Assembly (NCBI GenBank): GCA_964403285.1
Contig: CAYOFG010000005.1
Coordinates: 9,995 to 73,994, forward strand
DNA from: an uncultured Clostridia bacterium
GTDB lineage: Bacteria > UBA6262 > WVXT01
Length of the DNA: 64,000 bases
Direction of reading: 5' to 3'
Position numbers and translations under genes: made by a program. This document shows, in pieces, positions 17,067-56,036 of the stretch. The notes under the pieces are model-generated. The model saw nothing but the letters and a program-made list of their open reading frames with translations, was not told the DNA's origin and searched no databases. The stretch's first letter is position 1. The number at the start of each line of letters is the position of its first letter.

Positions 17067-17144
17067 AATCTGCTAGCCCACAAACTCAGTATGGAAAATG
17101 CTGTCAAAAGGGATGAAAAACTTTGGGAAAGAAGTGGGGGAAGT

Positions 17145-22743: not shown

Positions 22744-23134
22744 TATTCACCTCAAAAATAAAAAATCCAGCATTCCGCACTTGCAAAATACTGGACTTCG
22801 TTTCTCCTTCTCAAGCACGGAAAGCGCACCGATTTCTCAATGCACTCTATCGGCCATCAACCATATCTTTTGGACTTAGGCAAAGTGGCTCGGAGAATAT
22901 TTTTATAGCATAGTATAAAAATTATACTTTTTTGTCAAGTAAAAAAGAGATAGATGTTATCCAAAGGCTTTACCCACCCAGATTCTCGTTCTGGGAATCT
23001 TAACTTACCGGCAACCTCTGTTCGCTTCTGGTCATTTAGAAGTGAAAGCTTGACGAATTCTTATTTTCCTTGATTTTTATAGGAGGTTTAGATATAATAC
23101 TTTTGGTATTCTGGATAGTTCTAAGGTTGTGGAT

Positions 23135-27759: not shown

Positions 27760-27832
27760 GGGGCAGTAGTTCGGTTGGGAGAACGCATCCCTCTCACGGA
27801 TGAGGTCAGTGGTTCGAATTCCCTCTGCTCCA
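27760..27832 (+). tRNA. tRNA-Glu (anticodon CUC)
   Basis: Acceptor stem GGGGCAG/CTGCTCC, D-stem GTTC/GAAC, anticodon stem CATCC/GGATG with loop CUCUCAC, T-loop TTCGAAT. There is one mismatch in the T-stem and no encoded CCA. Confidence 0.6.
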
Positions 27833-28032: not shown

Positions 28033-28125
28033 ATGCATGTGATTTATTGGATAGGCGGTATTATTTCATTGCTTTTGTTTATTTATCTTCTCATAGCTCT
28101 TCTCAAACCGGAGATTTTTAAATGA
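28033..28125 (+). CDS. kdpF: K+-transporting ATPase subunit F
   Basis: [30 protein letters not shown]. The PExF-type C-terminus and single TM are typical of KdpF. Its stop overlaps the kdpA ATG (ATGA). Confidence 0.6.
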   Translation: MHVIYWIGGIISLLLFIYLLIALLKPEIFK

Positions 28126-29867
28126 ATTGGAATAATCTTGCCCAGAGCCTCATCTATTTGACAGTGCTGCTTTTGTTGGTTAAACCGCTTGGGATCTATA
28201 TGGCGCGAATCTATGAAGGCAAGCCTACCGGTATAAACGTTTGGTTTTGGTGGTTAGAAAAATTTATTTACCGATTGACAGGCGTACATCCTGAGCAGGG
28301 AATGAATTGGAAAACCTATGCAATAGCGATGATGCTATTTAATGTATCAGGAATAGTGGTTGTCTATATCCTTCAGCGTGTTCAACCGTACCTACCTTTA
28401 AATCCTATGTCTATGCCGGCAGTTAATCCGGATCTGGCATTCAATACGGCAGTTAGCTTTACTACCAATACGAATTGGCAGAGTTACGGCGGAGAAACAA
28501 TTTTGAGTTATCTTACCCAGATGCTGGGATTGACCGTTCAAAACTTTGTTTCTGCGGCAACGGGGATGGCTATATTAGTGGCTGTAATCCGAGGGTTTGT
28601 CCAAAAGCAGGTTGAAACAATCGGTAATTTCTGGGTGGATTTAGTTAGGTCTACGCTCTACATACTAATGCCGCTTGCAATAATACTGTCTTTGGTTTTA
28701 GTATCGCAAGGGGTAGTTCAGACCTTTAAACCGAGCGTAAAAGTCGCTTTGCTTGAAGCTGCTAGAGATGCAAATGGAGAAACTGTTTCAGAACAGGTTA
28801 TTGCTTTGGGTCCGGCTGCTTCTCAAATAGCCATCAAGCAGCTAGGTACTAACGGAGGCGGTTTCTTTAATGTCAACTCCTCGCATCCATTCGAAAACCC
28901 GACACCTTTATCAAATTTTCTGGAGATGTTAGCCATACTTTTGATAGCTGCGGCATTGTGCTATACCTTTGGCCATATGGTTAGAGACAGGCGTCAAGGT
29001 TGGGCGATACTGGCGGCTATGTTGATAATCTTTATTCCATGTCTTTGGGGATGCATTCAAGTTGAACAAAAAGGCAATCCTTTGTTTGGTCGATTAGGCG
29101 TTGATCAAAATGCAAGTTCTCTGCAGCCCGGCGGTAATATGGAAGGTAAAGAAGCGCGTTTTGGCATCGTGAATTCAGCTATATGGGCAACAGCCACAAC
29201 CGCAGCTTCCAACGGTTCGGTAAACTCAATGCATGATTCCTATATGCCTCTTGGAGGGATGGTCCCGATGTGGCTTATGCAATTGGGAGAGGTAATTTTT
29301 GGCGGAGTTGGCTCAGGCCTTTATGGGATGATTGCGTTTATCATTATTGCGGTATTTATCTCAGGGCTTATGGTCGGTCGTACGCCCGAATATTTAGGTA
29401 AAAAAATTGAAGGCTATGAAATGAAAATGGCTTCTCTGATGATTTTGATTCCGCCTATTCTTGTTTTATTAGGTACGGCAGTTTCAGTTGTTTTACCGCA
29501 GGCAAAAGCAGCGATATTTAATCCAGGCCCCCACGGATTCAGCGAAGTGCTGTACGCATTTTCTTCTGCAGGAAACAATAATGGAAGCGCATTTGCAGGA
29601 TTATCCACGAATAACCTTTTCTATAACATTGCTCAAGGGTTAGCTATGTTTTTTGCGCGTTACTGGCTCGCAATACCCGCGCTTGCCATTGCAGGTTCCC
29701 TTTCTAAGAAAAAGATTGTTCCTGTAAGTCAGGGCACATTGCCTACGCATACCCCGCTTTTTATAATATTTTTGGTTATGGTTATTTTGATTGTCGGAGC
29801 ACTGACGTTTTTCCCGGCATTAGCTTTAGGCCCAATTGTTGAGCATTTAATTTTATCTGGAGTTTAA
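28122..29867 (+). CDS. kdpA: K+-transporting ATPase subunit A
   Basis: 581 aa. N-terminus [33 protein letters not shown] and the four selectivity-filter-like GG regions are characteristic of KdpA. Confidence 0.9.
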
Positions 29868-29868
29868 T

Positions 29869-31947
29869 ATGAGTAAATCTCACAAGCCCAAGTCATTGTT
29901 TGATCCGTCCATTGCCGGACCGGCTGTCATTGAAGCGATAAAGAAATTAGACCCTAGGCATCAGATTAAGAATCCGGTGATGTTTGTGGTTTTGGTGGGA
30001 AGCGTATTGACTACGGGTCTATATATTCAGGCGTTGATGAGAAAAGGAGAAGCTCCGGCTGGCTTTATTTTAGCTATTAACTTATGGCTGTGGTTTACGC
30101 TTATTTTCGCTAATTTTTCGGAAAGCCTTGCCGAAGGTCGTGGAAAAGCGCAGGCCGCAAGTTTAAGGAAAGCTAGGAAAGATACTCTTGCCAAAAAGCT
30201 TTCGAAGGCTGAGTATAGTTCTGATTACGAAAAGGTAACAGCTTCGATGCTTGGAAAAGGAGATATTGTTCTTGTTGAAGCTGGCGATACAATTCCTATG
30301 GATGGCGATGTTATAGAGGGCGTAGCCTCTGTTGATGAGAGCGCAATTACCGGAGAGAGTGCACCGGTCATACGTGAAAGCGGAGGAGACCGCAGCGCTG
30401 TTACCGGAGGCACAAGGGTTCTTTCCGATTGGCTTGTTGTGCGAATAAGCTCTAATCCAGGAGAAACGTTTTTAGATCATATGATAGCCATGGTTGAAGG
30501 GGCAAAAAGGCAAAAAACGCCTAATGAGATAGCTCTTAGTATCTTGCTTGCTGTTTTTACTTTAATATTTCTTTTAGCAACGGCAACTCTTCTTCCGTTT
30601 TCAATTTATAGTATAAATGTCGCAGGGCATGGCGAGCCTGTCTCGGTAACGGTTTTAGTAGCCCTGCTTGTTTGTCTAATTCCCACTACCATAGGAGGAT
30701 TATTGCCGGCTATAGGCATTGCCGGTATGGATAGAATGATTCAGGCTAATGTTATCGCTACCTCGGGTCGGGCTGTAGAAGCATCAGGAGATGTGGATGT
30801 CCTTCTCTTAGACAAAACAGGAACTATTACGCTTGGCAACAGGCAAGCTGTGGCTTTTATTCCTACTCAAGGTAAGAGCATTGGGTCTTTGGTAGATGCA
30901 GCGCAAATAGCTTCTTTGGCTGACGAGACTCCGGAGGGAAGAAGTATTGTTGTCTTGGCTAAGGAAAAATATGGAATCAGGGAACGCCATATTCAAGAAC
31001 TTAGCGCAAAGTTCATCCCCTTTACAGCACAGACGCGAATGAGCGGAGTGGATTTAGGAGACGGCAGGCAGATCAGAAAGGGAGCGGTCGATTCCGTGGA
31101 AAGCTATGTCAAAGACCTCGGCGGGTCATTCCCAGAAGATTTAAAGACAGCCATTACCTTTATTTCTAAAAGCGGGGGAACTCCACTGGTTGTAGCAGAG
31201 CAAAAAAATGTGCTCGGCGTCATCCATTTAAAAGATATTGTCAAGGGCGGCATAAAGGAACGTTTTGCTGAACTGCGGCGCATGGGAATTAAAACCGTAA
31301 TGATTACCGGAGATAATCCTTTGACTGCAGCAGCGATTGCTGCAGAAGCAGGTATGGATGATTTTTTGGCTCAGGCTACTCCTGAATCTAAGCTTAAATA
31401 TATCCGCAAAATGCAAGAGGGAGGCAGACTTGTTGCGATGACCGGCGATGGAACTAACGATGCGCCGGCTCTTGCGCAGGCAGATGTTGCCGTAGCCATG
31501 AATACGGGAACGCAGGCGGCAAAAGAAGCAGGGAATATGGTTGACCTTGATTCTAATCCCACAAAGCTTATTGAAATTGTTGAAATCGGAAAGCAGCTGC
31601 TAATGACTCGAGGTTCTTTAACCACCTTCAGTATCGCCAATGATGTATCAAAATATTTTGCGATTATTCCGGCAGCATTCGTAGGAACGTATCCGGCGCT
31701 TTCGGCGCTTAATATTATGCATCTTGCCACACCAGCAAGCGCTGTTTTGTCAGCAGTTATTTTTAATGCACTTATTATTATACTTCTGATCCCGTTGGCG
31801 TTACGCGGCATTCGATATAAACCAATGCCTGCAAGCCGCCTTTTACGGGATAACTTGTTTATCTATGGAATAGGCGGAATAATAGCTCCGTTTTTAGGCA
31901 TCAAGTTGATTGATATGATTTTGGTTGCGTTACATCTTGTTCGATAA
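29869..31947 (+). CDS. kdpB: K+-transporting ATPase subunit B (P-type ATPase)
   Basis: 692 aa. Contains [28 protein letters not shown] and TGDNPLTA. Confidence 0.9.
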
Positions 31948-31955
31948 GGAGAAAC

Positions 31956-32564
31956 ATGTTTCGGCAACAAATTAGGCCAACGATTTTATTGTTTATAGTT
32001 TTATCAATCATCTCCGGGATTATTTATCCGCTATTTGTGACTGGCATTGCACAGATGTTTTTCCATAATAAAGCTAACGGCAGCTTAATTTATAGAAATG
32101 GAAAACCAGTAGGGTCATTACTTATTGGTCAACCATTTGATGACCCCAGATACTTTTGGGGCCGTCTTTCAGCAACATCTCCCGTTGCTTTCAATGCAGC
32201 AGCTTCATCGGGGTCTAACTTAGGGCCTTCTAACCCCGCATTAATCAGCGCGGTAGAAGCGCGCATCAAAGAATTAAAAGCAGCCGATCCTGACAATAAA
32301 AATCCAATTCCAGTAGATTTAGTCACTTCTTCAGCAAGCGGTCTAGACCCGCATATTAGTTTAGCGGCGGTGTATTATCAAGTTTCTCGGGTTGCGCGTG
32401 TGCGCGGATTACCGCAAGATTTCGTGAGAAAAATTGTAAACCAATATTCTCGCGGCCGTCTCTTGGGGGTAATTGGAGAGCCGGTTGTAAACGTACTTGA
32501 AGTGAATTTAGCATTGGATGCCCGCCTCACCGGCAGGCAGACGCAAAATGCAAAATTGAGGTGA
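31956..32564 (+). CDS. kdpC: K+-transporting ATPase subunit C
   Basis: 202 aa with a single N-terminal TM and the conserved GLDPHIS-type region. It follows kdpB. Confidence 0.85.
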   Translation: MFRQQIRPTILLFIVLSIISGIIYPLFVTGIAQMFFHNKANGSLIYRNGKPVGSLLIGQPFDDPRYFWGRLSATSPVAFNAAASSGSNLGPSNPALISAVEARIKELKAADPDNKNPIPVDLVTSSASGLDPHISLAAVYYQVSRVARVRGLPQDFVRKIVNQYSRGRLLGVIGEPVVNVLEVNLALDARLTGRQTQNAKLR

Positions 32565-32567
32565 AAT

Positions 32568-34745
32568 ATGGAAAGGCCTGATCCAGATGAATTGTTAGCA
32601 AATATCAAGCGCGAGGAATCGCATAGGGGAAAACTTAAAATTTTCTTTGGCGCGGCCGCGGGAGTAGGTAAAACTTACTCAATGCTTGAGGCCGCAAGGC
32701 TCCAGAAGAAAGAAGGCGTTGACGTTGTTGCCGGATGGGTTGAGACGCATAAACGTGTTGAAACGGAAGTTCTCCTTGAAGGCTTGGAAATCCTTCCGGC
32801 AAAGATTATCCAGTATAAGAATGTTGGGTTGCGAGAATTTGATATTGATGCTGCATTAGTGAGAAAACCAGCTCTTATCTTAGTCGATGAGCTGGCCCAT
32901 ACCAATGCTCCCGGTTCGCGCCACCCAAAACGATGGCAGGATGTTGAGGAACTTCTTGATAAAGGAATAGATGTTTATACTACCCTTAATGTTCAGCACT
33001 GCGAAAGTGCTACTGATGTTGTGGCTCAGATTACAGGCATAACCGTCCGTGAGACTATACCCGACACCATTGTTGAGAAGGCTGATGAAATAGAACTTGT
33101 GGATTTGCCCACCGAGAACCTGCTAAAACGCCTCAAAGAAGGAAAAGTTTATCTTGGAGAAATGGCAGAGCGAGCGGCTCAACATTTCTTTCAACCGGGT
33201 AATTTAATCGCATTGCGACAGTTGGCGCTGCGTTATACGGCGCACAACGTGGATGAAAAACTAATGTCGTATAAACAGGCTCATGCTGTTTCAAAAGTAT
33301 GGGGCGCGCGGGATAGATTTCTGGTATGTATATCTGCTAGCCCAAATGCCATTCGCTTAATCAGGGCAGGTAAACGCATTGCGGCAGATTTAGGAGTAAA
33401 CTGGACTGTTGCATATGTAGAGACTGGCACGCAATTAAATGAGAAGGACAAGGCTAGGATATCCGAAATGATGCGCCTTGCGGAAAAACTAGGGGCACAG
33501 GTAGCTACACTGAGCGGCCAAGATGTGGCAGAGACGTTAATTTCGTATGCGCGTTCAAAGAATGTCAACAAAATAATTGTGGGTAAGCCGGCAAAACCAA
33601 AATGGAAGGAGCTTGTTTTTGGTTCTATTATCGATAAGTTAGCCCGTAAATGCCAAGAAATAGATTTGTATCTATTAAGCGGAGAGGCTCAAAGTGAACC
33701 CATTGAGGTTGCTCCTGTGGCCATGGTTCCTTTTTCTTGGAAAAACTTCTTTAAAGTTTTAAGCATAGTCATTCTTTGTACCTTAATAGACTGGGCAATG
33801 TTTCGTAATTTAGCCCTTGTTAATTTAATAATGGTTTATTTACTGGGAGTAACCTGGGTTGCCTTCAAATACGGCCGCCGGCTGTCAATGATAGCGTCCT
33901 TCTTGAGTGTTGTATTTTTTGATTTCTTTTTCGTACCTCCGTATTTGACATTTGCGGTAGCAGACGTTCAATATATTCTTACTTTCGCAGTTATGCTCAT
34001 TGTGGGTTTTGCTATATCCCATTTGACGGGTCAGCTTCGCCGCCAAACTATCATGATGCGTTTCCGGGATGACAGAACGCAGGTTCTTTATGCGCTAAGC
34101 CGTGACTTGTCAAAAAGTTCCTATCCCGATGAACTTTTTAAGATTACGTTAAAACATATTCAAGAATTTTTTAAATGTCGGGCCGTTATCCTTACTCCTG
34201 ATGCAAAGAAAAAACTTATGCCGCGTTTTGGCGAAGCAGAAGAATTAAGTCTTTTCCCCAACGAAATTGCTGTCGCGCAGTGGGCATATGAAAATAAGAA
34301 AGTCGCTGGAAAAGATACCGATACCTTGCCGGGTGCAAAGGGAATTTATTTTCCTTTTGTGGGCGCAGAAAAGACAGTGGGAGTAATTGGAGTTTTTCCT
34401 CATGAGGATAAACAGTTTGTTGATCCCGAACAGTTTCATATTTTAGAAATGTTTGTTAGCCAAGCTGCACTGGCTGTCGAAGGAGCACAGCTTGCAGCGG
34501 CAGCTCTTGACGCAGAAGCAAAGATTGAAAGTGAACGTCTCAAGAATTTACTTCTAACTACTTTTTCTTCCGGTTTACCTGAGCCTTTAACGTCTATCTC
34601 TCAAACCGCCTCGGAATTATTAAAACCGGAAAATATTAAAGACGATTCAAAACGTGCTGAATTGATAGAGAAAATGCGCCAAGAGACAGAGCGTTTGAAT
34701 TCCCTTATTACTGAGTTGCCAAAGATACTTGAATCAGAAGAGTAG
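32568..34745 (+). CDS. kdpD: KdpD-like sensor lacking the kinase catalytic domain and the phospho-acceptor His
   Basis: KdpD N-terminal domain (GAAAGVGKTYSM P-loop), USP-like region, 4-TM block, GAF, then a degenerate DHp (ERLKNLLLTTFSSGLPEPLTSIS, where the canonical form is ..SHDLRTPLT..). The protein ends after about 70 more residues with no HATPase. No kdpE is present. Confidence 0.75.
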   Translation: MERPDPDELLANIKREESHRGKLKIFFGAAAGVGKTYSMLEAARLQKKEGVDVVAGWVETHKRVETEVLLEGLEILPAKIIQYKNVGLREFDIDAALVRKPALILVDELAHTNAPGSRHPKRWQDVEELLDKGIDVYTTLNVQHCESATDVVAQITGITVRETIPDTIVEKADEIELVDLPTENLLKRLKEGKVYLGEMAERAAQHFFQPGNLIALRQLALRYTAHNVDEKLMSYKQAHAVSKVWGARDRFLVCISASPNAIRLIRAGKRIAADLGVNWTVAYVETGTQLNEKDKARISEMMRLAEKLGAQVATLSGQDVAETLISYARSKNVNKIIVGKPAKPKWKELVFGSIIDKLARKCQEIDLYLLSGEAQSEPIEVAPVAMVPFSWKNFFKVLSIVILCTLIDWAMFRNLALVNLIMVYLLGVTWVAFKYGRRLSMIASFLSVVFFDFFFVPPYLTFAVADVQYILTFAVMLIVGFAISHLTGQLRRQTIMMRFRDDRTQVLYALSRDLSKSSYPDELFKITLKHIQEFFKCRAVILTPDAKKKLMPRFGEAEELSLFPNEIAVAQWAYENKKVAGKDTDTLPGAKGIYFPFVGAEKTVGVIGVFPHEDKQFVDPEQFHILEMFVSQAALAVEGAQLAAAALDAEAKIESERLKNLLLTTFSSGLPEPLTSISQTASELLKPENIKDDSKRAELIEKMRQETERLNSLITELPKILESEE

Positions 34746-35726: not shown

Positions 35727-35804
35727 CGGCGGCGTAGCTCAGTTGGTCAGAGCAGGGGAATCATAATCCCTTTGTCGTAGGTTCGAATCCTACCGCCGCT
35801 ACCA
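35727..35804 (+). tRNA. tRNA with CAU anticodon (elongator Met or tRNA-Ile2/lysidine)
   Basis: GGCGGCGTAGCTCAGTTGGTCAGAGCAGGGGAATCATAATCCCTTTGTCGTAGGTTCGAATCCTACCGCCGCTACCA is a full cloverleaf with CAU in the anticodon loop and a paired 1:72 position, so it is not an initiator. Coordinates are +/-1 because of a local numbering ambiguity. Confidence 0.85.
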
Positions 35805-45199: not shown

Positions 45200-47542
45200 T
45201 TGCCAAAAATGAAAAACGCAAAATATTGTTTGCTATTATTTTTATTTCTCGCCTTTTTTGTCCCATTTTGCTGGGCTCTTCCTGATCTATATATCTCCGA
45301 ATCAGACATCAGTTTTAGTACTGATTATCCCGACTCAAGTGAAGTATTTACTATTTCAGCAACTGTACATAACAGTGGGGATGACTATTCTGATCCGGTT
45401 TTTACTAAGAATCCTGGACCTGTCGACCTGATGGCAGCAGTATATAATAGTCAGTGGCTTGCTCAATCGTTTAATCACTCGGATGATATAAACTTAACAG
45501 GTGTAAGTCTGTTTATAAAAGATGTTGGAAATGATGATTCTCTAATTGTAACGATTGAGACAAATACTGCAGGTAATCTGCCGAGCGGCTTTGAAATTGC
45601 CTCCAGCACAGAAAATAGTAGTGGTGACGGATATTACTGGGTCGATTTTATGTTTTCTGGATTAGTCTCTTTATCAGCAAATACTACATACTGGATAGTA
45701 ACTCACAATTATGCTGTGGCCGACTCAGATGGGTATAAAGTAGTACTCACATCTTATAACTATTATGCTTCCGGCATAGAGGCTTACTCATATGACCAGG
45801 GAGGTACGTGGGAAGAATGGCAGAAACGCGATTTGTTGTTTGAAGCATATCGCTCTACAACAACTATAGTCAAATTCTATGATGGCGACCCGGATTCTGG
45901 AGGTTTTTTGATTGGTACAGACGAAATATCTCCAGTTCCTAACGGAGGTAGTGTAACTGCATCCATCTCAACTTCTACTTCCGCTGGCTATCATAGTATT
46001 TATGTCCATATAAACATGGATAATTACATTGTTGAACAGGATACAACTGATAATAAGGCTTATAATACAATTGCTGTAGATTTTCCCAGAGTTGTAAGTG
46101 CGGAAACAATTGATGCTGACCTCAATGGCTGTATAGATGCTTATTATATTGTCTTTAATGAGGATATAAATGATTCTGATTCTCAATTCAATCCGGCGGG
46201 TTTTACAGTTGATGGTCATAGTATCATAGGTGTCATCACCACTCTGGCAAATCATCTGGATGAGTTAGATGATGATGATATCTATCTTTGCTTTACTGAA
46301 AGCGGAATCCCTGATACTGGCATCGTTCCCGAAATCACTTATAGTAGCGCTACCGGAAAACTGACAGACCTGGACGATGGTAATCCTTTGCTTGATATTG
46401 GTCCATCGGACATAACCGAGGCCGATGGAACATCTCCGGCAATCAATTCTCTTCTTTCCTTTCCCCAAGACGGTGGACTGGGTGTCCTGATTGATGACTC
46501 AATTCAGATTATTTTTGCTGAAGAGATGAATGTCGACACTACAACCAGCGCCATCAAGGTAGAAGCAATTGTAAATAAAGATAGGGAAACTATAACTCCT
46601 GAGATAGTTTCCGGAGATTTTTCCTCTTCTTATGATGAAACTACCCACCGACATAAATTCATTTTTCAGCCGATTCCCACTCTAAAAAATAATTATACTT
46701 ATCGAGTTACTGTTGATACAACAGCAACAGATACCACTGGTGAACATTTTAGCGGCTTTGAGTTCGATTTTACCACAATTTCCAATTACCGGGAGTCGAA
46801 TACGTTTCTTTCAGGTGATGGCAAAATGAAAATAGCTTTACATGCTGCAACATTGAAAAAGGATTTCTTTGTAGAGGTGAGCACCTCTCCTCTTAAGGAC
46901 TCTTCCAAGAAAAACAATATAATTGATGCCAATAATAAACTTGACAATGATGATGACCCATTTTCCTTTACCCTGGAACCCACTATAGTAGAGATAGAAG
47001 CTTTTGATGCCAATGGGGATGCGATTACTGATGCCTTTGAAATTCCGGCAACTATAACTTTGTCTTACGAAGATAATAACCCTGAGAATGGGATTGTTGA
47101 TGAAACATCACCTGCGTTGAGAGAAAAGACATTACAAGTTTACTGGCTTGACGAGTCACATAGCCTCTGGGTGAAATTATCAGGTTCAAAAGTTGATACT
47201 GACTCTAACCGCGTTTCAGCTGACACGTTTCACTTTAGCGTTTTTAGCCTGCATGGAATGGGAACGACCGATTTGAGCGATGCTTATGCTTATCCTGTTC
47301 CGTTTATACCCAGTCGGGGAGATGAGGATATCACCTTTACAAACATTTCTCCTTTATGCACAATTAAAATATACACCCTGAATGGCGAACTTGTTAGAAC
47401 TATTGAACATACAAGCGGCAAAACTAGTCGTTCGTGGGACGTTACCAATGATAGAGGAGACAGGTTGGGAAGCGGAGTCTACCTTTACTTAATTGATAGT
47501 AATAGAAGCAAAAAGAAAGGGAAATTAATAATCATTCGATAA
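45200..47542 (+). CDS. large secreted protein with T9SS C-terminal sorting domain
   Basis: Signal peptide. The C-terminus ...CTIKIYTLNGELVRTI...WDVTNDRGDRLGSGVYLYLI...KKGKLIIIR matches the Por-secretion-tail pattern. Confidence 0.6.
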   Translation: MPKMKNAKYCLLLFLFLAFFVPFCWALPDLYISESDISFSTDYPDSSEVFTISATVHNSGDDYSDPVFTKNPGPVDLMAAVYNSQWLAQSFNHSDDINLTGVSLFIKDVGNDDSLIVTIETNTAGNLPSGFEIASSTENSSGDGYYWVDFMFSGLVSLSANTTYWIVTHNYAVADSDGYKVVLTSYNYYASGIEAYSYDQGGTWEEWQKRDLLFEAYRSTTTIVKFYDGDPDSGGFLIGTDEISPVPNGGSVTASISTSTSAGYHSIYVHINMDNYIVEQDTTDNKAYNTIAVDFPRVVSAETIDADLNGCIDAYYIVFNEDINDSDSQFNPAGFTVDGHSIIGVITTLANHLDELDDDDIYLCFTESGIPDTGIVPEITYSSATGKLTDLDDGNPLLDIGPSDITEADGTSPAINSLLSFPQDGGLGVLIDDSIQIIFAEEMNVDTTTSAIKVEAIVNKDRETITPEIVSGDFSSSYDETTHRHKFIFQPIPTLKNNYTYRVTVDTTATDTTGEHFSGFEFDFTTISNYRESNTFLSGDGKMKIALHAATLKKDFFVEVSTSPLKDSSKKNNIIDANNKLDNDDDPFSFTLEPTIVEIEAFDANGDAITDAFEIPATITLSYEDNNPENGIVDETSPALREKTLQVYWLDESHSLWVKLSGSKVDTDSNRVSADTFHFSVFSLHGMGTTDLSDAYAYPVPFIPSRGDEDITFTNISPLCTIKIYTLNGELVRTIEHTSGKTSRSWDVTNDRGDRLGSGVYLYLIDSNRSKKKGKLIIIR

Positions 47543-47546
47543 AATT

Positions 47547-49457
47547 ATGAAAGAATGGATATATAAATTAATTATATTTATCATATTGTCCGTTGGCCTG
47601 TCACTTCCGGATTGTTTTGCTAAGGGACGGGGAACTACAGGAGCAAATTTCTTAAAGATAGATGTGGGAGCCAGACCCTTGGGAATGGGGGGTGCTTTTG
47701 TTGCTGTAGCAGATGATGTTAACACTATTTGGTGGAACCCGGCGGGAGCTGCCACTACAAAGCGTAAAGAGATAACCTTAATGCATAATGAAATGGGTGA
47801 AGATATACGCTATCAATTCTTGGCTTATAGCCAGCCGGTAGGAAAACTGCGAGGAGGATTAGGGGGAAGCATATCCTATTTAAGTGTAAGCGATATTCAG
47901 GGATATAGCCCCGGGGGGATAGAAACCAAAAAGTTAAGCACATATGATTTGGGAATCAGTTTATGTTATGGTTTAAGAATTATTCCTTCCGTTTCCGGGG
48001 GCGTCAATTTTAAATTTATTGCAGAGAAACTGGCTGATAGGAAAGCTTCCACCTGTGCGTTGGACATAGGAGGGTTGTGGAAGACGCCTGTTTCTGGTTT
48101 ACGATTGGGATTCAATATTCAAAACCTCGGAGGAGGACTTAAGTTTATCGAGGAGAGGTCATCCCTTCCTCTAAATGGTAAACTCGGTTGTGCTTACGAA
48201 TTTGAGTTTTTTGGCGCTAAATCAATTGTTGCCATGGATGTCAATATACCGGTTGACTATAGCGTTTTTGTAAATGGTGGAGTGGAATGCAAAATATACG
48301 ATTTGATTGCTTTACGTGCAGGATTCAAGTCAAAAGATGATTTGTCCAGTGGACTCCGTTTAGGGATAGGAATTGGGGGGAAAAATTTGGTAGTTGACTA
48401 TTCCTGGCTATCCAGAGGAGATTTTGAGAATAGCCACCGTGTGAGTGCTACTCTCCGTTTCGGCAGAGAGTATGAAGAGAGTATGATTGAAACAGATATT
48501 AAAGAACATTTTGAGCGAGGCAAGAAATATTTTCATAACGGACAACTACTTAACGCCCACAGGGAGTTCAAAAACATACTTTTGGTTAGTCCGGGGCACA
48601 AAGGCGCGCGTGATTTTATAAGCCGCATCGAAGTCAGCGTAGAGGAAGTGGAAGTTGCGAAGGATATCACTAATTTCTTTAGCCAGGGAGAAAAGTATTA
48701 CAAAAAAGGTGATTTGATTTCTGCGCGCGCAATGTTTGAGGAGATTATTGCCCTTAATCCCGACCATCAAGAAGCAAGGGATTATATTAATATGATTGAG
48801 CAAAGGTTCGGTGAAGTCGTTAATTCCATTTTTGTAAGAGGAGTATCATATTATGAACAGGCGAATTACTCTAATGCTCTTGAGGAAATGAAAAAAGTCT
48901 TATCCCTTAATCCCGACCACCGGGAGGCAAAAGAATATATAACGCTCATTGAGAATAAGCAGAGGGAGCTGGAGAAAATCAAATTTGCCTTAAAGAAAAA
49001 ACAGGAAGAAGAAAGAAAAAACAGGAAAATCTCCGCCTGCCTCAAGAAAGGACTAAATTATTATGAAGAGAAACAGTGGACAAAAGCGATTAACTTATTT
49101 AATGAGGTGTTAGCTCTTGCCCCTGGCCATAAAGTAGCATTAGAGCATATTGTTATTTGTTACTATGCACAGGGACTCACCCTGCATAAAGAAGGCAAAT
49201 TGCTGGAAGCACTGCATATGTTCAACAATGTGCTCAGGTTATATCCGGAACATGAAGAGGCTCAAGAACGGATTTCCCGAATAGATGAGGAATGTAAGGA
49301 AAAAGCAGAACAGTACAATCGAGAAGGGCTGGTAGAATATACCCAGGGGAATTTGCAGGAAGCCATAGAAGCCTGGGAGAATGCGCTTCGTTTCTATCCT
49401 GACCTGGAGACAGCGCGAAAGAATCTGGAAAGAGCCCAAAAGGAAATAAACAAATGA
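47547..49457 (+). CDS. outer-membrane beta-barrel (PorV/FadL-like family) fused to C-terminal TPR repeats
   Basis: Signal peptide, then GARPLGMGGAFVAVADDVNTIWWNPAG motif and beta-strand-rich region to about residue 300. After that come 7-8 TPR-like repeats (..A...F..IL.L.P.H.EA..YI..IE..). Confidence 0.45.
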   Translation: MKEWIYKLIIFIILSVGLSLPDCFAKGRGTTGANFLKIDVGARPLGMGGAFVAVADDVNTIWWNPAGAATTKRKEITLMHNEMGEDIRYQFLAYSQPVGKLRGGLGGSISYLSVSDIQGYSPGGIETKKLSTYDLGISLCYGLRIIPSVSGGVNFKFIAEKLADRKASTCALDIGGLWKTPVSGLRLGFNIQNLGGGLKFIEERSSLPLNGKLGCAYEFEFFGAKSIVAMDVNIPVDYSVFVNGGVECKIYDLIALRAGFKSKDDLSSGLRLGIGIGGKNLVVDYSWLSRGDFENSHRVSATLRFGREYEESMIETDIKEHFERGKKYFHNGQLLNAHREFKNILLVSPGHKGARDFISRIEVSVEEVEVAKDITNFFSQGEKYYKKGDLISARAMFEEIIALNPDHQEARDYINMIEQRFGEVVNSIFVRGVSYYEQANYSNALEEMKKVLSLNPDHREAKEYITLIENKQRELEKIKFALKKKQEEERKNRKISACLKKGLNYYEEKQWTKAINLFNEVLALAPGHKVALEHIVICYYAQGLTLHKEGKLLEALHMFNNVLRLYPEHEEAQERISRIDEECKEKAEQYNREGLVEYTQGNLQEAIEAWENALRFYPDLETARKNLERAQKEINK

Positions 49458-50875
49458 AATTAAGAGCAAAGTTTTCTTTTTTAAACAGTTTCTTAATCAT
49501 TGCTGTCATTTTGGGAGTAAGTATCTTTCTTTTTATTGCTCAGAAGCGGCTTCTGATTCAAGAAATGGAAAAGAACCAAACGAATATTATTAAAGGATTA
49601 GCTCAGGTAGGCAAGGAATCTCTCATAACCAATGATGAAATACTGCTCATAAACTATGTAAACCTTGTAAAGAGAACCAGAGGAGTGATGTACGCAGTGG
49701 TGACCGATCCTCAGGGTAAAGTTCTTGCTCATACTGACGTGAGTCTTTTAGGAGCCATTGCCAATGATACTATTGGAATAAAAGCCGGTTCATCAAATAA
49801 ACTTATTACTCAATCATATGTAGATAAGGAAAAACAAAAAGTAATAGATGTCGCCTTGCCTATCTTGATTAACCAGGAGAAGGTGGGGATTGCTCGCATT
49901 GGGTTTTCTCAGGATAGTATACACGAAATAGTAGAGGAAACCCTAAGAGAAACGCGCAGAAGAATTTTTGGTGTCGCAGTGGTAATGTTAATCATCGGTT
50001 TTGTCGGCGCCGTAATTCTCGCCCAGATGATGACTAAACCAATTAAACAGATGGCAGAAGGAGCAGAATTAATCGGCCAGGGGAAACTTGATACGAAAAT
50101 TGTGGTCAAAAGCAAGGATGAACTGGGAAGTTTAGCCAGGGACCTCAACAAGATGTCCGGCCAATTAAAAGAGATCGACCAGATGAAAAGTGACTTCCTT
50201 GCCAGTGTTACCCATGAGTTAAAGTCGCCATTAACTTCACTAATTATGTACATTGACCTTTTCTTGACAGGGGCAACGGGTAAGTTGAACGAGAAAGCAA
50301 AAAAATTCTTGAGAATTATGGAAAGGAACAGCAATCGCCTTTCCCGATTTATTGATGACCTGTTAGATATGGCAAAGATTGAGCGAGGTAAGATGGAAGT
50401 AAGAAAGGAGTCCCTGGGAATTTTTCCCATAGTTTCGGAAACAGTAGAACTTATGAAACCTCAGGCTGATGAAAAAAATATTGAAATAGCAATTAATATT
50501 CAGGATAACTTGCCTTTAGTTTCTGTCGACGGGGACAGAACTCGACAGATCATCACCAATCTTCTCAGCAATTCCATAAAGTTTACCCCGGAGGAAGGAA
50601 AGATATCGATCAAAATCCAGGACGATAAAGAGTACCTTCAAGTCAGTATTAGCGATACGGGAATAGGTATTCCCCCGGACCAGATAAATAAGATTTTCGA
50701 TAAATTTGAACAAGTTAAAGAAATAAGAGAAAGAGTAAAAGGGCCAAGAGGGACTGGCTTGGGTTTGGCAATCGTGAAATCCCTGGTTGAGGCTCAGGGA
50801 GGAAAAATCTGGGTAGAATCGGAAGTGGACAAAGGTTCAACTTTTTATTTTACCCTGCCCAAACAGACAATATAA
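49454..50875 (+). CDS. membrane sensor histidine kinase (TM-sensor-TM-HAMP-HisKA-HATPase)
   Basis: H-box VTHELKSPLTSL and HATPase (NLLSNSIKFT, DTGIGIP, GTGLGL). Its start overlaps the stop of the upstream gene. Confidence 0.85.
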   Translation: MKLRAKFSFLNSFLIIAVILGVSIFLFIAQKRLLIQEMEKNQTNIIKGLAQVGKESLITNDEILLINYVNLVKRTRGVMYAVVTDPQGKVLAHTDVSLLGAIANDTIGIKAGSSNKLITQSYVDKEKQKVIDVALPILINQEKVGIARIGFSQDSIHEIVEETLRETRRRIFGVAVVMLIIGFVGAVILAQMMTKPIKQMAEGAELIGQGKLDTKIVVKSKDELGSLARDLNKMSGQLKEIDQMKSDFLASVTHELKSPLTSLIMYIDLFLTGATGKLNEKAKKFLRIMERNSNRLSRFIDDLLDMAKIERGKMEVRKESLGIFPIVSETVELMKPQADEKNIEIAINIQDNLPLVSVDGDRTRQIITNLLSNSIKFTPEEGKISIKIQDDKEYLQVSISDTGIGIPPDQINKIFDKFEQVKEIRERVKGPRGTGLGLAIVKSLVEAQGGKIWVESEVDKGSTFYFTLPKQTI

Positions 50876-50899
50876 GGCAAAGGTTTTTCCCTGCAGGTT

Positions 50900-51190
50900 A
50901 AGTTTAAAGTTAAAAGATAGTTCTTCGCTTGAGGAATATGCTCGGGATTTGGTTCGCTCGCTGACAATTTTTTGCTCTTCGAGCACCGCCAAAAATCTCT
51001 GTAGCTGCAGAGCGATAGCTCTGCGCAAATAATAAGCAAAGCTTGCGCTTTGCGGCTACAAATCTTCGATTTTTGGCTAAAAATTCCAAGAGCTCCTTAT
51101 AAATTGCACAAATTGAATTTGTGCCTACAATGAGATGAATTTGAAATTTTGTAGGCACGATTTCAAATCGTGCAAGGTTTTGAATAACGG
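50900..51190. repeat. mosaic of short palindromic repeat units (REP/BIME-like)
   Basis: Shares AAGTTAAAAGATAGTT, GCAGAGCGATAGCTCTGC, GCTTTGCGGCTACAAATCTTCGATTTTTGGCTAAAAATTCCAA with 58081-58335. It also holds a hairpin pair, TTGCACAAATTGAATTTGTGC and CACGATTTCAAATCGTG. Confidence 0.75.
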
Positions 51191-51257
51191 TAGAAGCTCT
51201 TTAGGCGAATAGTATATCTTCGAAAATTAAAGTTTAAGATGTTGGTGTGGGGGTATT

Positions 51258-53192
51258 ATGGCTGGTGAACGAATTTTAGTTGTTGATGACGATCCTAATA
51301 TTAGAGAAGCCTGTGTGGAATATTTGAAGATGAATAGATACAGTGTAGATGAAAGTAAGAATGGAGAAGAGTGTCTGCGACAACTTAAACAGAATTATTA
51401 TCAGATTATCCTTACAGATTTAATGATGCCGGGCATTGATGGAATTGGAGTGTTAAGAGCGGCAAAAAAAGAATATCCCCAATCTGATGTAATTATAATG
51501 ACTGCTTATGGGACTATCGAAAATGCAGTGGAAGCGATGAAAATAGGGGCTTACGATTATATTACAAAACCATTCAAGATTGACGAACTGGGTATATTGA
51601 TTGATAGATGCCTGGAGAAGCAAAGGCTTGCTCGAGAAGTTGATGAATTAAAAGAAGTAGTAAACCTCTATGAAGTAAGTAAAGCAATAAGTTCACTTAT
51701 GGATCTGGACCAATTGCTCTCGCGCATCATAAAATTAGCCACTGATACTTTAGGCGCGGATGGCGGGTCTATAATGTTATTTGATAAAGAAACGGGAAAA
51801 CTCATAGTAAAAGCAGCCTCAGGGAGAAGGGAAGATATGGTTATGGGAAAGAAACTCGATATCGGGGAAAGGGTAGCCGGGTATGCAGCCGAGAAAAGTG
51901 AGATTGTGAAGATCGATGGAAATTTGAAGGATGACCCGCGGTTCTCTAATCTTGAGCAGTTCGACGGGATACATTCAGGAATAACCATTCCCTTGGTTAG
52001 AAAAGATAAATTATTCGGTATAATCAATGTTCATAGAACAGAGAAAAAAGACACATTTACTAAAAAGGACGTGGACCTGTTATCTATCTTTGCGGCCCAG
52101 TCAGCAATTGCTATTGATAACGCGTACCTTTTCAGCACCTTGCAACAGGAAAAAGAAAAGATTGAGGCTGTTTTTCGAGGAATGGAAGATGGAGCGATTA
52201 TTACCGATGCTCAATTGAACATAATTATGCTTAATTCATCAACAGAAAGATTGTTAAATATAAAAAGAGAAGAGTGCCTGGGAAATAACCTTCTGGAATT
52301 CATTCCAGATTTTCAACCTTCTATTACCTGGAAAGAACTGGAAAAGAAAGAGGAAAAGGTGGTCAATTTTGACCTAGTAAGAACAACCAGGAAGACTCTT
52401 TTTCTTTCTGTTGTAGCCACCAAAATCAGGAATGAAGAGGGGAAATTATTGGGCCAGATTATGGTGCTTCGTGATGTTACTGATGAGAAAAAAGAGGAAA
52501 TGGTAAAGAGAAATTTCCTTAACCTTATTTCCCACAAACTGAGAAATCCCCTGACAACGATTCTGGGATACCTTCCTTTCCTTCAGGAAAAAATGAAAGT
52601 ATTGGGCAAGTCGGAAAAAGAGATTCTGGAAGTGATAGAAAAGGAAACACTGATTCTTTCCAGTCACGTAGATAAACTACTTATGTTTACCCTGCTGGAG
52701 CGGGAATATTTAGAAATTAAGAAAGAAAAAGTAAATATAAAATCCCTTGTAGAGACTGCATTGGAAATGATAGCAAGTCTCATTAAGGTTAATCTGGCAG
52801 AAGTAGAGATTGATAGCAGGTTGGGCGATGTAGGCCAGGTTTATGTAGATAAATTAAAAATCCAGGATGTCATTGAAAACTTAGTGGAAAATGCAATAAA
52901 GTTTAATGATAAGAAGAGAAAAAAGGTGAGAATTAGCGGGTGTGCTGTGGATGATAAGTTTATTCAAATGGAAATATCCGATAATGGGCCGGGTGTTCCT
53001 TCCGAAGAACATGAAAAAATATTTCAAAAGTTCTATCAGGTGGAGGAATATTTTACGGGCAAGGTAGAAGGAACAGGACTAGGATTGGCACTGGCAAAAA
53101 GACTCGTAGAAACTCATGGGGGGAGAATCTGGGTGGAAAGCAAATTGGGAGAGGGAAGTACCTTCTATTTTACTTTACCAAGAACAGAATGA
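51258..53192 (+). CDS. hybrid REC-GAF-PAS-HisKA-HATPase histidine kinase
   Basis: Receiver (ILVVDDDPN...[12 protein letters not shown]...YITKPF) closely similar to that of 3741-5429. Then GAF, PAS, H-box [10 protein letters not shown], and HATPase. Confidence 0.85.
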
Positions 53193-53229: not shown

Positions 53230-54240
53230 CTAAAAATGGATGATTAATGAAATCTTGTTATCCCGGGTATAACCTATCATTTCACTTGCCGGCACATTAG
53301 CCCAATCGAATTGATAGTTCTTAAGTTTAATCCCCATCCCGTAAGTTGCTCCCCTAACATTGCCATCTTTTTCATAATAACCAAATCGTAGGAAAATTGC
53401 ATCTTTGAATTTGTGTTCTCCTCCCATATGTATGCGCCATCGGTCGTTGAGAACTTTGTTAATATCACTGGCAATGATCCAGGGACCCTTATTGTAAGAA
53501 AGACCTAATCTTATTGTTCTCGGTAAATCATCCTTTTTGATTTCTCCTTCCATCTGAAGTCTGTTTCCTGCATTTAAGAGAGAAGACCCCAGATTCAATC
53601 CCTTGGCAAAAGGAAATTCATAAATGAGACCAAAATCTCCAGAATATGCTGTTCCTTTGGTAGTTCCAAAGATAGGGTCACTTTCTATCCGTTGGATTAC
53701 CTTAAACCCAAGACCAAAAGAAAGGCCTCCTGTAACTTCTTTACCATACGATAATGCTAATGCCCAATCTGTCCACCTTAGGTTCCCCAAAGTTTTACCC
53801 CCTGTATCTGTTACCGGGAGAGGGTCAATAAACAAAAATACCCCACTTATTTCATAAGTTCCCCAACCCTTTACGGGAACAGCTAAACCAAAAAAGTTAA
53901 GGAAAGCGTCCCTTACCGCCTCGCTATACATTGCTGCGCATTGTATCCTCTTTATTTTTGCTAACCCTGCAGGATTCCAATAAGCAGAAGTTACGTCAGA
54001 ATGGAGGGAAACAGAGGCCTCTCCCATTGCAGAGGGTCTGGCTCCTATGCCAAATATAAGAAAATCTACATAGGTGGGACGTATATCGCCGGCATATGCA
54101 TTTTTTACTAATGCACAAAATGCAAAAATCAAAAATAAAATTTTAAAAGTTGATTTAATCATTTTCCTAATCTGGTAGTCGCAAGCTTTAGCTTGCGTTA
54201 AACTTCGCAGTCTGCGGGATATTTTGTTCACAGGGCTCAT
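53230..54240 (-). CDS. outer-membrane beta-barrel protein, PorV/FadL-like family
   Basis: Signal peptide, GIGARPSAMGEASVSLHSDVTSAYWNPAG (same family motif as 47547), and a C-terminal ...ISLIIHF. Confidence 0.45.
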   Translation of the reverse strand: MSPVNKISRRLRSLTQAKACDYQIRKMIKSTFKILFLIFAFCALVKNAYAGDIRPTYVDFLIFGIGARPSAMGEASVSLHSDVTSAYWNPAGLAKIKRIQCAAMYSEAVRDAFLNFFGLAVPVKGWGTYEISGVFLFIDPLPVTDTGGKTLGNLRWTDWALALSYGKEVTGGLSFGLGFKVIQRIESDPIFGTTKGTAYSGDFGLIYEFPFAKGLNLGSSLLNAGNRLQMEGEIKKDDLPRTIRLGLSYNKGPWIIASDINKVLNDRWRIHMGGEHKFKDAIFLRFGYYEKDGNVRGATYGMGIKLKNYQFDWANVPASEMIGYTRDNKISLIIHF

Positions 54241-54306
54241 AAATAATAATACCTCTCGGTATAATTATTATATATCAGACTTTTGCGTGCCGAGAGGTAA
54301 TATATA

Positions 54307-55779
54307 TCATTTCAGGATAGCCATTCTTTTGGTATCTATAAAATCACCTGCTTTTAACTGATAATAATAGATACCGCGCGAAAGTCTATCGCCAGCATCG
54401 AAATGTTTTGAATAACTTCCTGCCTGCTGATACTCATCCACGATAGTGGCTACTAACTGTCCACAAATGTTATACAGTTTTAAGGTAACGTGGCAATCCT
54501 GAGAAATAGCGTAGTTTATTGTCGTTGATGGATTGAATGGATTGGGATAATTCTGTCCCAAAGAATTTTTTGCTGACTCGGCTAGTTCTCTTTTATCGCC
54601 TGGATCAGACTGTCCAGGTGAAGATGATGAAACGCACATAATCTGATACAGGCAATACCCTGTCCTTTTCGTGGTGACACTTTGTTCTGCCGGGTCTAAT
54701 GTGGAATCGGGCATAACTTCCCATTGAGATGTTGCTTCATTCCATCCACAGATTACGATATTTTCTGTATCCATCCCCTGGATATCTTCGTCCCTGAAGA
54801 AAAGTCGCACCAGCTTTCTCCCTTTAGGGAAGATAAATCTGGGAGCAATAGGCTTAAGGTTTTGTTCCTCTATAGCATTTTCCTCAAGGGTGGTTGAACC
54901 TTCATAGGTGACGATGAGTGCGGGGTACCCATTGACAATTTGCGTATCATAATCCAGGGAAATCGTAACATAGTAAATTCCCTTGTCCCAATTTCCCCTT
55001 ACAGTTTCAGTAAGATCCCATTCATAGCCACCGCCTTCAATAATGGGTAAGAAGTAGTGTTTGGCAAATTTATGCTCAAGCAATCTCGACCACTTGCGGT
55101 TTAAGAATTTTCTCAGCCAAAATTTAATTCTCCAATCATTCTTTCGGTAATTCATCCACAACAGGGCTTTTACGATTGTGGAATCTGAAGATAAGTGCTT
55201 GCCTAAACGGAAAATAAACGTCTTTTCTCTGGCATTTACAGGGAAACATTTTCCCGGCCCAATAACTCTTAAGGTGTCAACTCCGGTAAACTTTTCTCCA
55301 CTTGCGAGCAATCCTTCAATGGTTATTTCAACTTCGTCTCCGGGACTAAGAACATTTATTAAATCTCCTCTTGCAAACTTCGCTAATAGACAATTATCGC
55401 TTTCTGTCCCTGACTTCGTCGTTTTATCTGCGGGTATTGGTTCTATGGGATATCCATCGATTGCCGAGATTTGTACGGTATTTCCATCAATCTGATTGAC
55501 ATTGAACTCATCCGGCAATCTAATAGATGCGGTAATATATTTACCCATGCTCTTAAGGTTTATGGTGTTTGGGGTTATATTCACGGTTACTGCTATGGGT
55601 TCGGGAGGTGGAGGTTCAGGTGGAGGTGGAGGCACGTCATCATCAAGATCATCGTCTATAGGTTCATCGACAGGCTCTCCCATCACGACAACTGTGTCGG
55701 CTTGGGCAAAAGTAGGGAAAATAGATAAACCCGTTATCAGCAAACAGCCAATCAGAAATAGCATAAGGGTTTTTTTCAT
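54307..55779 (-). CDS. secreted protein with Pro-rich linker and T9SS C-terminal sorting domain
   Basis: Signal peptide. A DDDLDDDVPPPPPEPPPPEP linker. C-terminus ...GQNYPNPFNPSTTINYAI...LKLYNICGQLVATIVDE...GIYYYQLKAGDFIDTKRMAILK, the hallmark Por_Secre_tail. Confidence 0.6.
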   Translation of the reverse strand: MKKTLMLFLIGCLLITGLSIFPTFAQADTVVVMGEPVDEPIDDDLDDDVPPPPPEPPPPEPIAVTVNITPNTINLKSMGKYITASIRLPDEFNVNQIDGNTVQISAIDGYPIEPIPADKTTKSGTESDNCLLAKFARGDLINVLSPGDEVEITIEGLLASGEKFTGVDTLRVIGPGKCFPVNAREKTFIFRLGKHLSSDSTIVKALLWMNYRKNDWRIKFWLRKFLNRKWSRLLEHKFAKHYFLPIIEGGGYEWDLTETVRGNWDKGIYYVTISLDYDTQIVNGYPALIVTYEGSTTLEENAIEEQNLKPIAPRFIFPKGRKLVRLFFRDEDIQGMDTENIVICGWNEATSQWEVMPDSTLDPAEQSVTTKRTGYCLYQIMCVSSSSPGQSDPGDKRELAESAKNSLGQNYPNPFNPSTTINYAISQDCHVTLKLYNICGQLVATIVDEYQQAGSYSKHFDAGDRLSRGIYYYQLKAGDFIDTKRMAILK

Positions 55780-55791
55780 TATTACCCCTGG

Positions 55792-55952
55792 AATAAAAAA
55801 ACCGGCTTGCCTACTCTTTTAGAGTTTTTTCGGCAACCCGGCTCGCATGGAACGGTATCTTCGGCAACCAGCTAGCATAGACCTACCGGTCTTTAGCCCC
55901 GTGGCTTTGCGTCCTCCGATTTCTCGGAGTTTGCCTTTATCGAATACCCCTG
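55792..55952 (-). promoter_or_regulatory. c-di-GMP-I (GEMM) riboswitch with intrinsic terminator expression platform
   Basis: Minus-strand RNA: GGGUAUUCGAUAAAGGCAAAC, then UCCGA-GAAA-UCGGA (GNRA hairpin), then GGACGCAAAGCCACGGGG. The P2 hairpin carries a tetraloop-receptor-like CUAAAG...UAUG. After that comes CCGGGUUGCC...GGCAAGCCGG plus seven U residues, then the RBS and AUG of 54307-55779. Confidence 0.7.
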
Positions 55953-56036
55953 TTTTCATTACAAGTATATCACACAAATTGGGAATTGTCAACGTGAAAA
56001 AATACGGAGAAATAAGTAATAACCCCTTAAAAATAC

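Follow-up and report, generated by a model that had tools for sequence, protein, structure and literature searches.

A canonical c-di-GMP-I riboswitch aptamer with a duplicated 3' strand precedes a type IX secretion cargo-barrel gene pair and is predicted to control it by transcription termination

A 64-kb stretch of DNA from an uncultured bacterium (contig CAYOFG010000005.1, positions 9,995 to 73,994; the whole stretch is called the window below) carries, on its minus strand, a 5' leader in front of a gene for a secreted protein of 490 amino acids (aa) and a gene for an outer-membrane beta-barrel. The initial annotation took this leader for a cyclic di-GMP (c-di-GMP) riboswitch with an intrinsic terminator. 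The question raised by this locus is whether the leader really belongs to this class and, if so, what it senses, in which direction it acts and what its control of the two genes would mean. The leader was confirmed to contain a canonical c-di-GMP-I (GEMM-I) aptamer, with a similarity far beyond chance. Three features were absent from the initial annotation: an 8-bp P1 helix, the regulatory direction, and a terminator whose 5' arm duplicates the 3' strand of the aptamer.

The whole window was run through cmscan against Rfam 15. RF01051 (c-di-GMP-I, GEMM-I) matched positions 55860-55945 of the minus strand over its full length (model positions 1-87/87) with 84.2 bits and an E value of 3.8e-15, while the gathering score of the family is 35. 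This was the search by which the riboswitch claim was to be judged, and the claim was borne out. R1, an independent covariance model that was partly trained on this very sequence, gave 105.8 bits on the same aptamer. The sequence blocks quoted in the initial annotation are all present on the minus strand: AAAGGCAAAC and GACGCAAAGCC, the CUCCGA-GAAA-UCGGAG hairpin, and CUAAAG...CUAUG on either side of the GACC-GGUA-GGUC hairpin. One arm thus carries a GNRA tetraloop (GAAA) and the other a tetraloop receptor (CUAAAG/CUAUG), as type 1 aptamers do. Judged from its sequence, the element has every RF01051 feature that computation can check. The parts of the leader are as follows, in the order of transcription.

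55964-55992, minus strand: sigma-70-like promoter, TTGACA, 17 nt, TG-n-TATACT (score 11/12, extended -10 TG)
55941-55948, minus strand: P1 5' strand GGUAUUCG, paired with 55854-55863 in the minimum free energy (MFE) folds, both sides invariant in 22 leaders
55860-55945, minus strand: aptamer core, c-di-GMP-I (GEMM-I), full RF01051 model, with the GAAA hairpin and the CUAAAG/CUAUG receptor
55854-55876, minus strand: proximal aptamer 3' strand (P2 3' strand, C92, P1 3' strand), GCUAGCU-GGUUGCCGAAGAUACC, from the RF01051 alignment
55829-55850, minus strand: distal second copy of the aptamer 3' strand, CCAUGCGAGCCGGGUUGCCGAA, a direct repeat that is also the terminator 5' arm (stem 55832-55841)
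55795-55844, minus strand: intrinsic terminator, GAGCCGG-G-UUGCC, inner ACUCU-AAA-AGAGU hairpin, GGCAA-G-CCGG and U7, from the MFE folds
55777-55789, minus strand: Shine-Dalgarno (SD) sequence AGGGG (55785-55789) and AUG (55779) of the 490-aa gene

The promoter-like site, the aptamer, the terminator and the SD/AUG follow one another in this order, and the arrangement is kept in 22 distinct leaders. TTGACA and the -10 element are also kept in the homologous loci, and transcription is predicted to start near 55957. P1 is formed in the MFE folds by 8 bp between GGUAUUCG (55941-55948) and CGAAGAUACC (55854-55863). The terminator stem CCGGGUUGCC...GGCAAGCCGG, followed by U7 (55795-55801), appeared in every MFE fold of the full leader, in agreement with the terminator claimed at first, and contributes about -18 kcal/mol (-46.2 vs -27.9). 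A simple terminator scan of the window did not call this hairpin, whose loop of more than 8 nt was too long for it. From the end of the U-tract at 55795, the distance is 5 nt to the SD and 15 nt to the AUG, and not 12 nt as had been stated.

Exact look-up, together with a metagenome scan using an alignment of the protein lacking its C-terminal domain (CTD), yielded the homologous loci (L numbers below). About 30 full-length homologs, all metagenomic, share 62-95% identity with the 490-aa protein, and a second tier at 33-40% includes Elusimicrobia-labelled proteins. The genes are ordered LytR-NadD-ProA-PlsY, then the leader with the cargo and barrel genes, then a response regulator/histidine kinase (RR/HK) and a second histidine kinase. 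A GEMM-I match was obtained in 24/24 close loci having enough upstream DNA. The 22 distinct leaders align with 91% mean column identity. Their mean identity to the window is 93.3%, as compared with 82.3% for the adjoining coding sequence, and the leader is thus more tightly constrained than the protein. The GAAA hairpin shows compensatory changes at two pairs (L086, L106 and L108) with no pair broken, and 98.6% of cells are paired across the 22 leaders; covariation within the close clade is sparse. All nine pairs of the terminator stem are kept in the 22 leaders, and so is a mismatch at its centre (G.G in 20, G.A in 2).

The association extends beyond the close clade. Five of seven distant orthologous operons, with 33-40% protein identity, have a GEMM-I directly upstream (L110, L112, L114, L117 and L118), while none was found upstream of the other two (L115 and L116). 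These distant loci have the same cargo-barrel pair and often the same RR/HK neighbour. On the other hand, no GEMM-I was detected in 80 loci (570 kb) around unrelated genes with a CTD of the type IX secretion system (T9SS) from Bacteroidota, Ignavibacteriota, KSB1 and others. These control loci were the CTD-level matches of a contig scan with the full-length protein alignment, which were dominated by the ubiquitous CTD motif QNYPNPFN and included no orthologs. The GEMM-I association is therefore specific to this gene family and does not extend to T9SS cargo in general.

The bases expected to contact the ligand are G at 55935, A at 55908 and C at 55864, corresponding to model positions 11, 38 and 83 of the RF01051 alignment. 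We take these positions to be the equivalents of G20, A47 and C92 of Vc2 as in PDB entries 3IRW and 3MXH. The identity of these three bases points to c-di-GMP as the ligand, although binding itself is a prediction. The G at position 20 is invariant in the 22 leaders, in place of the A20 of GEMM-Ib. The window and every homolog aptamer read GCAAAG, with A47 in place of the G47 of RF03167 (c-di-GMP-I-GGC). Many homologs matched RF03167, and this label was rejected in view of A47 throughout; the matches arise because the RF03167 model better tolerates a long P2 insertion or use of the distal strand. Vc2 from Vibrio cholerae, the structural archetype of RF01051, shares with the window element the three-helix junction, the GAAA tetraloop docked in the receptor of the other arm and the G20/A47/C92 contacts. 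It differs in gene context and in having no intrinsic terminator of the window type, and the proximal-strand P2 of the window element has a 1-nt deletion that leads to an internal loop.

The most unusual part of the leader is the second copy of the aptamer 3' strand. The repeat finder detected a direct repeat of 15 nt at 55824-55838 and 55855-55869, 87% identical with a spacing of 31 nt. The proximal copy reads CUAUGCUAGCU-GGUUGCCGAAGAUACC and the distal copy CCAUGCGAGCCGGGUUGCCGAAAAAAC. In the RF01051 alignment the proximal strand is 1 nt short of the family consensus, with the deletion at model position 77; its bases at the conserved 'AG' vary among the 22 leaders, and the base opposite C45/G46 is U, A or G but never C. 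The distal copy, in contrast, is invariant in the 22 leaders, is the same as the canonical strand of related aptamers (family consensus AGCCGGGUUGCCGAA) and is fully complementary to the P2 5' strand (100% of cells across the leaders). Because of this perfect complementarity, Rfam aligned the aptamer to the distal copy in several homologs, giving 118-nt matches. The G that is mismatched in the terminator stem would pair with C42 of the P2 5' strand. Since this conserved G finds its perfect partner there, the terminator 5' arm is constrained by pairing with the aptamer beyond its terminator partner. The deleted nucleotide and the absent C of the proximal P2 strand would fit a helix that is kept displaceable.

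A similar design was found in L117, a distant ortholog whose cargo is 33% identical. There, GCCGGGUUGCCGA occurs twice, 22 nt apart, and the aptamer 3' strand, GCCGGGTTGCCGA, is repeated exactly at 2431-2443 and 2453-2465. The pairing partner of the second copy is a segment whose end lies 4 nt before the AUG, and a U-tract is absent. The two states are almost isoenergetic (-66.0 vs -64.3 kcal/mol). L117 therefore apparently has the same two-strand architecture with a translational output, and the presence of the two-copy design in lineages whose cargo is only 33% identical argues that it has been selected.

The direction of control was considered from this architecture. In OFF switches such as Cd1 of Clostridioides difficile, the aptamer strands [PA] and the terminator strands [TH] are separate, while ON switches share the A strand with the terminator (PMC9262584). 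In the window leader, the complete aptamer [P-A] and the terminator [T-H] lie on non-overlapping nucleotides and coexist in the MFE fold. Across the leaders, the pairing compatibility was 100% for the P2 5' strand with T and 94% for A with T, which is the OFF architecture described in PMC9262584. Because the aptamer and the terminator do not overlap, as in Cd1, we favour a transcription-termination riboswitch in which c-di-GMP induces termination, and consider this direction reasonably probable. The long P1 (8 bp, invariant) is possible only with the proximal strand.

In this mechanism, transcription would start near 55957, and the aptamer, with P1, the GAAA hairpin, P2 with its receptor and the proximal 3' strand, would be complete by about nucleotide 104. 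When c-di-GMP is present, the ligand, recognised by G20, A47 and C92, would lock the aptamer fold. The terminator 5' arm would then stay free to pair with GGCAAGCCGG, the polymerase would stop at U7, and the operon would be OFF. When the ligand is absent, the aptamer would not be the most stable fold, and aptamer segments would capture the terminator 5' arm. This capture could be by the P2 5' strand, by the proximal 3' strand (as in the A:T antiterminator of Cd1) or by both, and formation of the terminator hairpin would be delayed long enough for read-through. In leaders ending before the terminator 3' arm, non-aptamer folds lay 4-10 kcal/mol below the enforced aptamer in 22/22 cases, and the terminator 5' arm was largely paired in them. 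A gap of this size is less than the binding energy expected of a ligand bound at pM-nM concentrations. The enforced pairing of the P2 5' strand with the distal copy gave -40.0 kcal/mol, as compared with -38.3 for the proximal aptamer.

Several points weigh against this reading. Nearest-neighbour folding gave no consistent antiterminator, and the partner of the terminator 5' arm varied among the homologs. The perfect pairing of the P2 5' strand with the distal copy was almost weightless in the unconstrained ensemble. The full-length state with both aptamer and terminator lay about 7 kcal/mol below the antiterminated state; because the terminated state is the global minimum by this amount, control would have to be kinetic. 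The distal copy is closer to the consensus AGCCGGGUUGCCGAA and could complete a ligand-competent aptamer, as the 118-nt Rfam matches suggest, which favours an ON switch. Some single-copy distant leaders also look ON-type: the aptamer 3' end of L112 complements the SD, and the aptamer and terminator of L118 overlap. Most pairs never vary in the close clade, so that covariation support is thin. Both ligand binding and the OFF direction are predictions. Close-clade covariation does not separate the proximal-P2, distal-P2 and A:T pairings, all of which are 94-100% compatible. Likewise, the nearest-neighbour ensembles of growing transcripts and of the 22 shortened leaders did not reproduce the native P2, and hence do not discriminate between ON and OFF.

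The opposite direction would result from a strand swap, in which the distal copy, that is, the terminator 5' arm, closes the ligand-bound aptamer and c-di-GMP prevents termination, while the proximal copy has no role but to occupy the P2 5' strand when the ligand is absent and termination occurs; in a possible three-state or band-pass variant of this scheme, both conformers would bind the ligand. In its favour, the distal copy is the one that is invariant and matches the family consensus exactly, the proximal copy having a deletion and variable bases at the conserved 'AG'. In many homologs it is the distal copy that the Rfam models use, and in L104 and L108 (81.3 and 78 bits) this is true of RF01051 itself. 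The two arms of the terminator (T5-T3) resemble the ON-type platform of another riboswitch in the window (16931-17025), the two-copy design recurs with almost isoenergetic states in L117, and the ON-type appearance of some single-copy orthologous leaders points in the same direction. However, the proximal conformer is transcribed first, so the ligand should trap it, and it has all of the binding-site bases, the sole long P1 (8 vs about 4 bp) and a compact tetraloop-receptor geometry. The distal conformer, on the other hand, is mostly mismatched opposite G48 and has about 38 nt inserted into the receptor. A mere decoy would have no need of the conserved P1 extension, and equal binding by both conformers would give no equilibrium switching. 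We therefore regard the ON switch as a serious competitor, but an unlikely one. Rather more speculative is the idea that one aptamer 5' half with two interchangeable 3' halves is not a simple two-state device, and that either an internal duplication of about 30 nt turned an ON-type GEMM-I into an OFF switch, or c-di-GMP is bound by both conformers. If both bind, the outcome would depend on the timing of the ligand during transcription, and a band-pass response could follow.

Two other explanations leave the aptamer itself in place. It could sense 3',3'-cyclic GMP-AMP (3'3'-cGAMP), as GEMM-Ib does, or another dinucleotide. GEMM-I aptamers of the two specificities are almost indistinguishable by overall sequence, and several homologs were reported under the variant model RF03167. 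However, A20 reportedly typifies the cGAMP-selective GEMM-Ib and position 20 (55935) is G here, on which ground 3'3'-cGAMP specificity was rejected; the 'GGC' label is an artefact of the RF03167 model, A47 being present in the window and all homologs. A ligand other than c-di-GMP is thus very improbable. It is also improbable, though less so, that the aptamer controls only the 490-aa gene, or acts otherwise than by termination (for example, on RNA stability), with the PorV-like gene expressed independently. This would agree with the 9-bp inverted repeat and AU-rich tail in the spacer of about 145 nt between the genes, and with a weak promoter-like site at 54264-54293. However, the two genes are adjacent and co-oriented in every ortholog examined, close or distant, the intercistronic hairpin has no proper U-tract, and the terminator of the leader is canonical and conserved. 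We therefore return to c-di-GMP-induced termination, with the barrel gene presumably co-transcribed, as the preferred reading. The operon downstream of the leader is composed as follows.

54307-55779, minus strand: 490-aa secreted protein with a signal peptide, a Pro-rich linker, an Ig-like beta-sandwich (residues ~60-175), a body without Pfam match and a T9SS type-A C-terminal sorting domain
54251-54298, minus strand: intercistronic 9-bp GC-rich inverted repeat ACCUCUCGG ... CCGAGAGGU with a 30-nt loop, then AUUAUUAUUU (AU-rich), from sequence
53230-54240, minus strand: PorV/PorQ-family outer-membrane beta-barrel, 336 aa (NF033709, 143 bits, cut-off 90)

Residues 411-487 of the 490-aa protein matched PF18962 (Por_Secre_tail) with 32 bits (cut-off 27) and TIGR04183 with 40 bits (cut-off 23). 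With a signal-peptide-like N-terminus and a sorting domain above the curated cut-offs, the protein has the features of a T9SS type-A cargo. An AlphaFold model from an 18-sequence alignment had a pLDDT of 47 and was confident only for residues 60-175. Foldseek against the PDB returned only generic Ig-like matches (Fabs, ClfA and RbmA), with TM of at most 0.17 over the query, and no function was drawn from the fold in view of the poor model and these generic matches. For the barrel gene, the start of the open reading frame at 54240 is probably too early, and the true start would be the ATG at 54162, before the signal peptide. The barrel missed the equivalog cut-offs of PorV (NF033710), PorQ and PorV2, with 67, 57 and 69 bits vs 250, 220 and 325. 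Thus the cargo and a PorV-like barrel stood as first annotated, the barrel matching the broad PorV/PorQ family only. The intercistronic repeat may cause partial termination, be a site of processing or have a stabilising role.

The type-A CTD cargo (TIGR04183) beside a PorV/PorQ-family barrel gene (NF033709) is reminiscent of the PorV-cargo shuttle of the Bacteroidota T9SS in P. gingivalis and F. johnsoniae. The window differs in that its barrel is far below the equivalog cut-offs and is encoded beside one specific cargo, that no T9SS core genes lie within the 64 kb, and that membership of its host in the FCB group is not demonstrated. The core components looked for in the window without success were SprA/Sov, PorU and PorK-N/GldK-N. 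The statement that the riboswitch gates T9SS export was therefore an over-reading, as only the expression of one cargo-barrel pair can be controlled here. What the sequence supports is transcriptional control, probably repression, of this one cassette.

Among characterized GEMM-I switches, the window element would work most like Cd1, which precedes the flgB operon and is a transcriptional OFF switch. Both have the same aptamer class, the strand order P-A-T-H and non-overlapping [PA] and [TH] (PMC9262584). The dimensions are also similar, the aptamer being complete at about 90-100 nt and the decision point lying at about 150-160 nt (PMC9262584). They differ in that the T strand of the window element nearly repeats its A strand and has two possible pairing partners, A and the P2 5' strand, and in that the window element has a long P1, while none is detectable in Cd1. 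The genes are a T9SS-type cargo and a barrel instead of flagella, and Cd1 is experimentally proven, while the window element is known from sequence alone. The ON switches, namely pilM/GEMM-Ib of Geobacter and the window element at 16931-17025, share with the leader a terminator 5' arm having the aptamer-3'-strand sequence AGCCGGG[C/U]UGCC, followed by a spacer hairpin, the complementary arm and a U-run. In these switches, however, the arm is the only 3' strand of the aptamer, so that aptamer and terminator are mutually exclusive, whereas the extra proximal copy in the present leader completes the aptamer and allows both to coexist. The 'T before A' arrangement of the pilM type was considered as a precedent for a decoy strand and was rejected, because the T strand of pilM belongs to the terminator stem and does not mimic A (PMC9262584).

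The window contains two more GEMM-I aptamers, both on the plus strand. The second one, at 14982-15066 (RF01051, 79.6 bits), precedes the gene 15047-16765 and overlaps its start. The SD AAGGAG (15034-15039) is part of its P2 hairpin, and the only plausible start codon, ATG 15047, falls within its conserved CUAUGAUGG block. This aptamer would itself sequester the ribosome-binding site, in a compact translational OFF design. The product of this gene, of 572 aa, has a signal peptide but matches no Pfam family. The third aptamer, at 16931-17025, scored 62.2 bits with RF03167 yet has A47; it has a GCAA loop and no receptor. A 12-bp terminator with U8, extending to about 17063, uses the P2 3' strand of this aptamer, AGCCGGGCUGCC, as its 5' arm, an ON-type arrangement in the MFE fold. 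The gene behind it (17091-18818) encodes a 575-aa paralog that is 90% identical to the protein behind the second aptamer, and the two paralogs thus appear to be under opposite c-di-GMP logic. A protein with a response-regulator receiver and a GGDEF domain is encoded at 9314-10243 (plus strand). It has GGDDF instead of GG[D/E]EF and matched the first 91 of the 161 GGDEF profile positions, and may be a degenerate diguanylate cyclase or an effector. A riboswitch of a different class, for the molybdenum/tungsten cofactor (RF01055, 70.5 bits), lies at 22788-22907 on the minus strand, upstream of the genes for a PBP_like_2 solute-binding protein (21922-22743) and a Porin_O_P-family porin (20924-21892).

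The window is unusually rich in sensor kinases. Upstream, the PlsY gene is divergent from the riboswitch operon. From the other side, the genes for a HAMP/sCache histidine kinase and a REC-GAF-PAS-HisKA hybrid kinase (49454-53192, plus strand) converge on it. This kinase-pair neighbourhood is also present in L084, L086, L112, L116 and L117 and is kept even at 33% identity, which suggests that the two-component pair is functionally linked to the cargo-barrel cassette. Beyond the kinases, a second cassette on the plus strand (45200-49457) encodes a 780-aa Big_5/CARDB protein with a weak T9SS CTD and, 4 nt later, a 636-aa fusion of a PorV/PorQ-family barrel with TPR; no riboswitch was found upstream of this cassette. 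Similar Big_5/CARDB/FlgD_ig proteins flank the riboswitch operon in the distant loci L110, L114 and L115. Three more PAS/GAF histidine kinases and a complete kdpABC-kdpD region are encoded at 1391-7987, 19273-20391 and 28122-34745, all on the plus strand. The window also contains a gene for a FIST-domain protein at 87-1271 and tRNA genes at 27760-27832 and 35728-35801.

As for the host, the arginyl-tRNA synthetase of the window belongs to a metagenome-only clade at 74-95% identity. Beyond this clade the identity is at most 56%, and the named neighbours are Elusimicrobiota, Thermodesulfobacteriota/Deltaproteobacteria and Nitrospinota. The Elusimicrobiota lie outside the FCB group in the NCBI taxonomy, and the FCB-group host assumed in the initial annotation is unsupported by these neighbours.

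Full-text searches of the literature found no report linking a c-di-GMP riboswitch to T9SS or describing riboswitch control of a T9SS cargo, and this gene association appears to be undocumented. GEMM-I riboswitches are well-known regulators of envelope, adhesion and motility genes. One more GEMM-I is therefore unsurprising, and a T9SS cassette fits the known scope of GEMM in environment, membranes and motility. None of the present additions overturns current understanding. A single 64-kb window uses one aptamer class in three platforms, namely, a probable OFF terminator, an ON terminator and an aptamer containing the SD and the AUG. Among them, the duplicated-strand platform is the most deserving of experiment, and the duplicated aptamer 3' strand would provide a clean system for strand-displacement switching and for the inversion of riboswitch logic. 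What is new for the biology of this family is a conserved regulon link, in which a protein with a T9SS-type sorting domain and its dedicated PorV/PorQ-like barrel are predicted to be under c-di-GMP control, down to 33% protein identity, across uncultivated sediment and groundwater lineages near the Elusimicrobiota.

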